The position numbers and the translations under genes are program-made. Under the pieces are notes generated by a model. The model ran no database searches. It worked only from the letters and a program-made list of their open reading frames with translations, and was not told the origin of the DNA. A stretch of DNA of 64,000 bases from Anolis carolinensis (lineage: Eukaryota). The stretch covers positions 61,611,636-61,675,635 of the forward strand of contig NC_085841.1 of assembly GCF_035594765.1 (NCBI RefSeq), read 5' to 3'. Position 1 is the first letter of the stretch. Every line of letters starts with the position of its first letter. Below, piece after piece: positions 14,302 to 14,802 of this stretch.

Positions 14302-14802
14302 ATGGCTTCCCTGCCCCTTTTGACCAATCTAGCTGTTGTAGTTGGGTCAAGGGGCAGCTCTGGTACTACTGCTAGTAGGAGAAAAAGGGATAACAGGGAA
14401 CAGGTGTCTGATGAAGAACAGCAAGTGAAAAGGATTCGTGAAATACTTATGGCTCCCTCTGAGGATGAAATGTTTGAAGGATTTTCTAGTGGGGAAGAGG
14501 AGATGCTAGAGGATGATGAGTTGACAGAGAGCAGAGGGATTAAAAGGTCAACTCGGGAGCAAGAGTCTGATGGGGAGAGGGAAAGAAAGAAGATCCGGGA
14601 AATACTTATGGCTCCCACGGAAGATGAAACATTTGAGGGGTTTTCCGGGGATGATGGGTCTGGGAGTGAGATGGAGAATGCTGATTGGACTCAAGTAAGT
14701 GTGGATGATGAGCCAGGGGATTGGCAAACCTCTCATACTTCTGGGACATGGGGAGATCTAAGTCTTGAACGGAGATGGAGGGACTGGAGAGATGAGGGGT
14801 GA
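14302..14802 (+). CDS. LTR-encoded acidic ORF with two K-x-IREILMAP-(S/T)-EDE-x-FEGF repeats (candidate LEDGF-IBD/TND-binding motifs)
   Basis: 166-codon open frame, ~156 codons inside the LTR; 53-codon duplication with 6 synonymous vs 2 non-synonymous codon differences over the 18-codon core; the ATG itself lies in flanking DNA. Confidence 0.6.
   Translation: MASLPLLTNLAVVVGSRGSSGTTASRRKRDNREQVSDEEQQVKRIREILMAPSEDEMFEGFSSGEEEMLEDDELTESRGIKRSTREQESDGERERKKIREILMAPTEDETFEGFSGDDGSGSEMENADWTQVSVDDEPGDWQTSHTSGTWGDLSLERRWRDWRDEG

Follow-up and report, generated by a model that had tools for sequence, protein, structure and literature searches.

In plants, the chromoviruses of CRM group A encode the C-terminal tail of their integrase within the LTR; its CR motif has the centromere as target, and the accessible part of the paper names no partner for the motif (PMC3059260). 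On the host side, a TIM is composed of a helix, an acidic linker of 8-16 amino acids and an optional FxGF, and the available parts of the source give the FxGF a unique role in recognition by LEDGF and HRP2, all of whose known partners need it, many other TIMs being without it (PMC9987994). The published consensus for these ligands is D/ExExFxGF (PMC8022399), and the accessible sections of two further papers accord with a ligand motif of this type (PMC7337902, 10.1101/624023).

How vertebrate Gypsy elements choose their insertion sites is largely an open question. HIV integrase engages LEDGF through folded domains, and the title of one study reportedly presents LEDGF tethering as specific to lentiviruses; elsewhere, as in Ty5 with Sir4 and MLV with BET, short C-terminal peptides of the integrase serve in targeting. 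Here we describe an open frame within an LTR of the lizard Anolis carolinensis. The reading we favour, with somewhat better than even confidence, is that this frame is the decayed remnant of an LTR-encoded read-through integrase tail, in which a motif likely to bind the TND of LEDGF/PSIP1 or of HRP2 would tether the integrase to H3K36-methylated chromatin. LTR-encoded tails (CRM) and lentiviral LEDGF tethering were already known; what is new is a LEDGF-ligand-like motif in an LTR-encoded integrase tail. In the literature covered, with Repbase/Dfam and subscription papers outside its scope, no description linking a TIM/IBM motif to a retrotransposon was found.

The frame lies at positions 14302-14802 of the window, by which we mean the whole stretch of 64,000 nucleotides that was analysed, and translates into 166 amino acids with no internal stop. 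It is carried by a solo LTR (Table 1) whose ends at 14334 and 15631 are confirmed because contigs from other copies part ways at these two positions. The preliminary description had the frame stop-free from the start of the LTR (14334) to the TGA at 14800-14802, the first methionine of the LTR inside motif 1 and the ATG at 14302 in the host flank, upstream of the target-site duplication, all of which the translation bears out. The solo LTR family is very large and comprises at least 41 DNA matches (the 40 best scored of 1508 candidates) and its tail at least 151 protein matches (the 150 best scored of 8530 candidates). The ten closest copies are all solo LTRs, bracketed by 5-bp duplications that are exact in five and carry one mismatch in the other five.

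Table 1. Features of the solo LTR and its flanks, in coordinates of the window.
Feature	Position	Strand	Remark
Host-flank ATG	14302..14304	+	Upstream of the target-site duplication; in frame with the LTR by chance
5′ target-site duplication CTAGC	14329..14333	n/a	Pairs with 15632..15636
Solo LTR, 1298 bp, TG...CA, chromodomain-less Ty3/Gypsy family A	14334..15631	+	Bracketed by 5-bp CTAGC; parent copies known
LTR-encoded integrase C-terminal tail, remnant, 155 codons here	14335..14802	+	About 188-193 codons in siblings
RRKR basic cluster, possible nuclear localisation signal	14377..14388	+	Suggested by sequence
Motif 1: TIM/IBM-like, with a predicted helix, an acidic Ser/Thr linker and FxGF	14428..14484	+	FEGF at 14473-14484
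Motif 2: tandem copy of the helix-acidic-FxGF unit	14587..14643	+	FEGF at 14632-14643
Premature stop (TGA) of the window copy	14800..14802	+	7/9 closest siblings continue beyond
Place of the family's usual stop (TAA), out of frame in the window copy	14874..14876	+	Sibling comparison
Three 88-101-nt tandem repeats, non-coding, within the LTR	15002..15262	+	
AATAAA, putative polyadenylation signal	15570..15575	+	Lone match, not above chance
3′ target-site duplication CTAGC	15632..15636	n/a	Pairs with 14329..14333

In 15 of 38 solo copies the frame stops 187-193 codons into the LTR. The length of about 155 amino acids initially attributed to the parental tail therefore has to be revised to about 190 codons: seven of nine siblings read on past 14800, where the stop of the window copy is premature. 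Compared with L009, the window copy lacks 18 nt following 14713 as well as 7 nt following 14843. Its tail is acidic (27% D+E), and both the basic cluster and an AATAAA near the LTR end have counterparts in the sister family B, the former at the matching place of the tail. An exaptation of this copy into a 166-aa host gene starting at the flank ATG is scarcely credible: it does have a complete ORF with two intact motifs, but an in-frame flank ATG occurs in 13 of the 38 solo copies (8 of the 38 are also open for at least 150 codons), and the copy shows ordinary decay, with a premature stop and deletions, while its head region matches that of a sibling at 96.6% identity. The chance origin proposed for the ATG thus stands, and of the exaptation envisaged alongside it there is no sign. 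The window copy is a decayed, non-functional fossil and, as a single locus, ordinary. About 31 kb separate the solo LTR from the nearest of several ORFs on the minus strand (45638-62501) that resemble exons of a mixed-lineage kinase, which we take to be MAP3K21-like; Pfam gave no supporting match for them.

The parent elements have the hallmarks of Ty3/Gypsy: TG...CA LTRs, a short target-site duplication and a PPT abutting the 3′ LTR, together with the order PR-RT-RNaseH-IN and a GPY/F module (SH3_Tf2-1), as seen by Pfam in three database proteins (P0004, P0002, P0003) and in the frames of locus L061. The chromodomain PF00385 is absent by Pfam from P0002, P0003, P0004 and P0005; each of the 18 relatives found outside anoles seems to bear a chromodomain (17 by Pfam, P0006 by motif). 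Neither a PPT nor pol was present 5′ of the LTR at 21 loci, 20 of which had been picked mostly for long open frames. A first PPT pattern produced a single match, judged to be chance, and a PBS pattern 12 candidate matches. Once the PPT register had been suggested by an unrelated chromodomain Gypsy reading into its own LTR, a PPT-plus-LTR pattern gave 12 matches, three of them with the PPT GGAGGGGGATAG or AGAGGGGGATAG; searching the DNA with one of these three led to further loci.

At six of the ten family-A loci with internal sequence the GPY/F module is in the frame of the LTR ORF, in five of them with no stop in between, and its distance to the LTR is always 64 aa at these six (64-65 aa overall). 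One of the remaining loci is frameshifted and three have no junction that was located by script, among them L065, which shows a shifted junction. L061 has kept both LTRs and 324 open codons leading from integrase as far as the 191st codon of the LTR. Family B, a younger sister family with LTR pairs that are 99.0% and 99.7% identical, has rve, SH3 and tail in a single frame at 3/3 loci; the database Pol P0004 is intact, with RT-RNaseH-rve-SH3-tail in one frame of 1110 aa, and an eye count of the 150 family-B matches listed gave open frames of 1210-1216 aa in 35. The two families are sisters (100/100) in an unrooted tree of 16 rows, 8 of 24 rows having been left out for want of an anchor. It is as good as certain that in the parent element the integrase reads through the PPT into the 3′ LTR. 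The proposal that the ORF is the C-terminal tail of integrase is upheld by the in-frame read-through in both families and in P0004, and an early termination of pol, the outcome that would have spoken against it, is not the case at the five open family-A loci. A separate accessory ORF, ERV- or nef-like, which had been offered as an alternative, is ruled out by the Gypsy domain order and by the frame shared with integrase.

No relatives of the tail were found outside anoles, whether by a word-index search (one match) or by a profile run against the full library (seven matches), a library that is poor in TE proteins. The seven comprised P0024 and two more anole sequences, one family-B tail and three repeat-type matches judged to be chance (P0148, which was inspected, P0149 and P0150). 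Internal copies of family A are often broken by nested Gypsy insertions of other families (L056, L058, L073, L074). The window also contains a second, unrelated full-length Gypsy on the minus strand (34801-40103), whose two 300-bp LTRs are identical; its pol ends directly downstream of GPY/F without reaching the PPT and possesses neither chromodomain nor tail, so that it represents a natural control family.

A different, very young and abundant chromodomain Gypsy with near-identical copies (L025 5771-9553 on the minus strand, L031, L068) has a 1261-aa pol that likewise continues for about 96 aa inside its 3′ LTR; the extension contains an acidic stretch ending in LGF but is not picked up by the motif profile described below. 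Read-through alone is therefore not rare, and one might consider the anole tail to be a functionless run-on whose frame is open only because U3 is purine-rich or constrained by the promoter. We have compared LTR heads in this respect, retaining 47 of 50 (three were disrupted or spurious) from copies that came from similarity ranking rather than random sampling. Outside CpG, synonymous to non-synonymous changes number 71/94 among shared and 63/232 among private variants (p=1.3e-6), the synonymous share being 43% for variants common to at least three copies and 21% for private ones. No synonymous excess is seen in either of the other frames (p=0.27; p=0.61), nor downstream of the stop (p=0.84). 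Shared gap runs come in multiples of three in 9/13 cases within the ORF versus 1/16 after the stop (p=0.001). The LTR frame is under purifying selection in active lineages, in this frame only. Since it is also kept across subfamilies, the open frame is not a product of chance.

Divided into segments, selection is modest at both motifs (p=0.013 and 0.05), strong between them (p=6e-5) and not significant in the first 35 codons (p=0.59) or after motif 2 (p=0.29). These last two segments, like the 96-aa extension of the chromodomain family, are what a run-on would lead one to expect, but the frame-specific synonymous excess and the frame-preserving shared indels largely refute it, as does conservation at the protein level: the tails of families A and B are about 38% identical, with the P and the F-G-F of the motif kept in B. 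We regard a mere run-on as highly improbable. The strong selection between the motifs means that the tail may do more than carry them.

The motif consists of a predicted helix, an acidic linker and FxGF. The preliminary description did not say what this repeated unit resembles, namely a LEDGF/HRP2-binding TIM/IBM. The 47 copies used for its columns were chosen without regard to the motif; they keep F, G and F in 44, 45 and 46 cases for motif 1 and in 47, 45 and 46 for motif 2, x being E, Y, Q, M, L, K or V. Tails of family B have one unit, those of the window's family two and those of a divergent subfamily a third; the third unit, seen at L063 (about 8300-8400), P0145 and P0024, has decayed in the subfamily of the window. 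An AlphaFold model of the tail is mostly disordered (mean pLDDT 55, pTM 0.18) and places helices at 24-42 and 76-95 (local pLDDT about 74-79), one before each FxGF. In this respect the tail agrees with the TIM/IBM type, the disorder by low AlphaFold confidence and by the absence of any Pfam domain found in the window tail, the helix in prediction, with its aliphatic I/L anchors kept. Between the last anchor and F the linker counts eight residues, a spacing shared by JPO2-M1, and putative CK2-type S/T-x-x-D/E sites are located at 14458 and 14617. Both window motifs conform exactly to D/E-x-E-x-F-x-G-F, family B having D instead of E at -2; in shuffled tails one such full motif arises by chance in about 5e-4 (about 0.05%).

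A profile built from 47 of 85 motif peptides, chosen by a pattern requiring P and FxGF and therefore favouring FxGF matches, was run against 177,635 PDB sequences and gave its best score to JPO2-M1 in 6EMO (E=3.8e-4, 19 residues aligned without a gap), followed among eight matches by the MLL1 peptide 2MSR (E=0.15). Within 100 kb around the lizard CDCA7L and CDCA7 genes, the same profile matched one LTR copy and three host stretches below E=1e-3 and nothing else below this value; we read the host stretches as the probable motif-bearing exons of these genes. On the C-termini of 19 other Gypsy Pols the profile reached 2.6 bits at most. The tail might nonetheless act in another way, as an acidic disordered domain contacting H2A-H2B or the nucleosome or through a partner of its Trp-rich helix, with the likeness to JPO2 being incidental. 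Acidic-aromatic motifs of this kind exist in histone chaperones. The model contains a third, Trp-rich helix which, together with the Trp positions, is invariant across families A and B; a profile from family-B motifs alone matched no IBM peptide in PDB, and with a profile of the whole tail 6EMO came only 17th of 21 (E=0.85), behind chance matches. But the gap-free match to JPO2-M1 takes in helix and spacing, the motif profile finds the host's own motif exons, and the unit is tandemly duplicated two to three times with G fixed while x is free; we hold the acidic-domain explanation to be decidedly unlikely. Alpha-hemolysin matches of the whole-tail profile (E of 0.035 upwards) were put down to chance, and with the single window sequence as query nothing was matched.

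The host encodes PSIP1 as well as an HRP2-like exon/gene, and the lizard IBD shares about 90% identity with its human counterpart, differing at about nine positions (P0026 residues about 401-489), a few of which presumably lie in ligand-contacting loops. A processed pseudogene of PSIP1, interrupted by a stop within the IBD (L075, G000:C2:143718346-143718648), was also noticed. A recent capture of the motif from CDCA7L is ruled out, the DNA likeness being confined to the motif; between CDCA7L and the tail, third bases agree in only 442/779 codons for identical residues. We favour the view that the motif arose by convergence with host ligands rather than by capture, an ancient capture being possible.

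Judging from these likenesses at the sequence level, it is likely that LEDGF or HRP2 would serve as tether to an integrase that mimics host ligands. Only the 3′ copy of the LTR is translated, as the end of Pol. The IBD of LEDGF or HRP2 would then meet several disordered TIM-like units on the integrase multimer, with the acidic linker likely phosphorylated by CK2 and the two to three tandem copies of the motif providing avidity. The PWWP domain of LEDGF/HRP2, which holds H3K36-methylated nucleosomes, would keep the integration complex at transcribed chromatin and may thereby bias integration into active genes. More tentatively, and with slightly less than even confidence, we suggest that a vertebrate Gypsy lineage swapped its chromodomain for an LTR-encoded tandem TIM mimic which hijacks LEDGF/HRP2 into active gene bodies; the tail would have replaced the ancestral chromodomain, with a host reader standing in for it. 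The formation of solo LTRs leaves this coding piece at thousands of places, the window locus included.

By eye count of the insertions listed, 4/150 in family A and 13/150 in family B lie off the six large chromosomes C1-C6, versus 15.3% of bases. If the small chromosomes are gene-dense, gene targeting predicts the opposite of the observed under-representation, a comparison that is confounded by purging of insertions. This missing enrichment would suit a motif that binds a TND protein for some other purpose or a different partner, such as IWS1, TFIIS, ELOA, MED26 or PNUTS, or that serves nuclear retention, integrase stability or transcription after integration. TIMs bind many TNDs, but the role of FxGF, in the available parts of the same source, is unique to the recognition of LEDGF and HRP2 (PMC9987994). 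The stabilisation of JIL-1 by its LEDGF-domain partner, described in the accessible portion of 10.1101/624023, offers a precedent for another purpose; against this, the tail occupies the very place where chromoviruses carry a targeting domain. We consider such a different partner or purpose unlikely, though it deserves to be kept in mind.

If the anole motif is a true FxGF-type TIM, as our preferred reading of a LEDGF/HRP2 tether has it, this would mean that LEDGF/HRP2 was captured a second time, independently and by another structural route. An LTR-encoded integrase tail would also gain a named partner, which for the plant CR motif is absent from the accessible part of the paper (PMC3059260), and thousands of solo LTRs would be potential sources of TIM-coding exons. 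Three gene models (P0145, P0146, P0024) fuse the LTR tail to retroelement-like or flanking frames; they are probably annotation artefacts and show how easily solo LTRs yield TIM-bearing ORFs. Family B is young and has many open pol frames, so that the idea is testable in a living genome.

The peptides of Ty5 and MLV, like that of Ty1, belong to another superfamily and involve another partner and motif, and are not known to be encoded in the LTR. Ty1, in the available parts of the source, resembles the anole element in that a short motif of the integrase tail (TD), through AC40, mimics a host interaction to choose targets (PMC7459421). With the host ligands JPO2 (CDCA7L), MLL1, IWS1, POGZ, DPF3a and JIL-1 the anole element shares the helix, the acidic Ser/Thr linker, the FxGF and the disorder, as far as the accessible sources describe them (PMC9987994, PMC8022399, PMC7337902, 10.1101/624023; 6EMO, 2MSR); the likeness is closest to JPO2, with the gap-free match to JPO2-M1 and tandem copies in both. 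It differs from all of these TIM/IBM ligands in that the candidate motif is part of the integrase of a mobile element and is encoded in an LTR, POGZ being a domesticated DNA transposase and not a mobile retroelement. With lentiviral integrase the predicted host tether and integration in transcribed genes would be the same (PMC9987994, in the part available), whereas the anole element, unlike HIV, would work with a linear imitation of the motif found in host ligands. The analogy with CRM group A drawn at the outset has proved apt, as the LTR-encoded integrase tail seen in the available part of that paper (PMC3059260) is found here too, in a vertebrate lineage and with a host SLiM pointing to LEDGF/HRP2. 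Family matches are spread along the chromosomes of a reptile host, and the element is not classed as CRM group A. It thus resembles CRM group A in its architecture and lentiviral tethering in its predicted mode of action, and is a member of neither.
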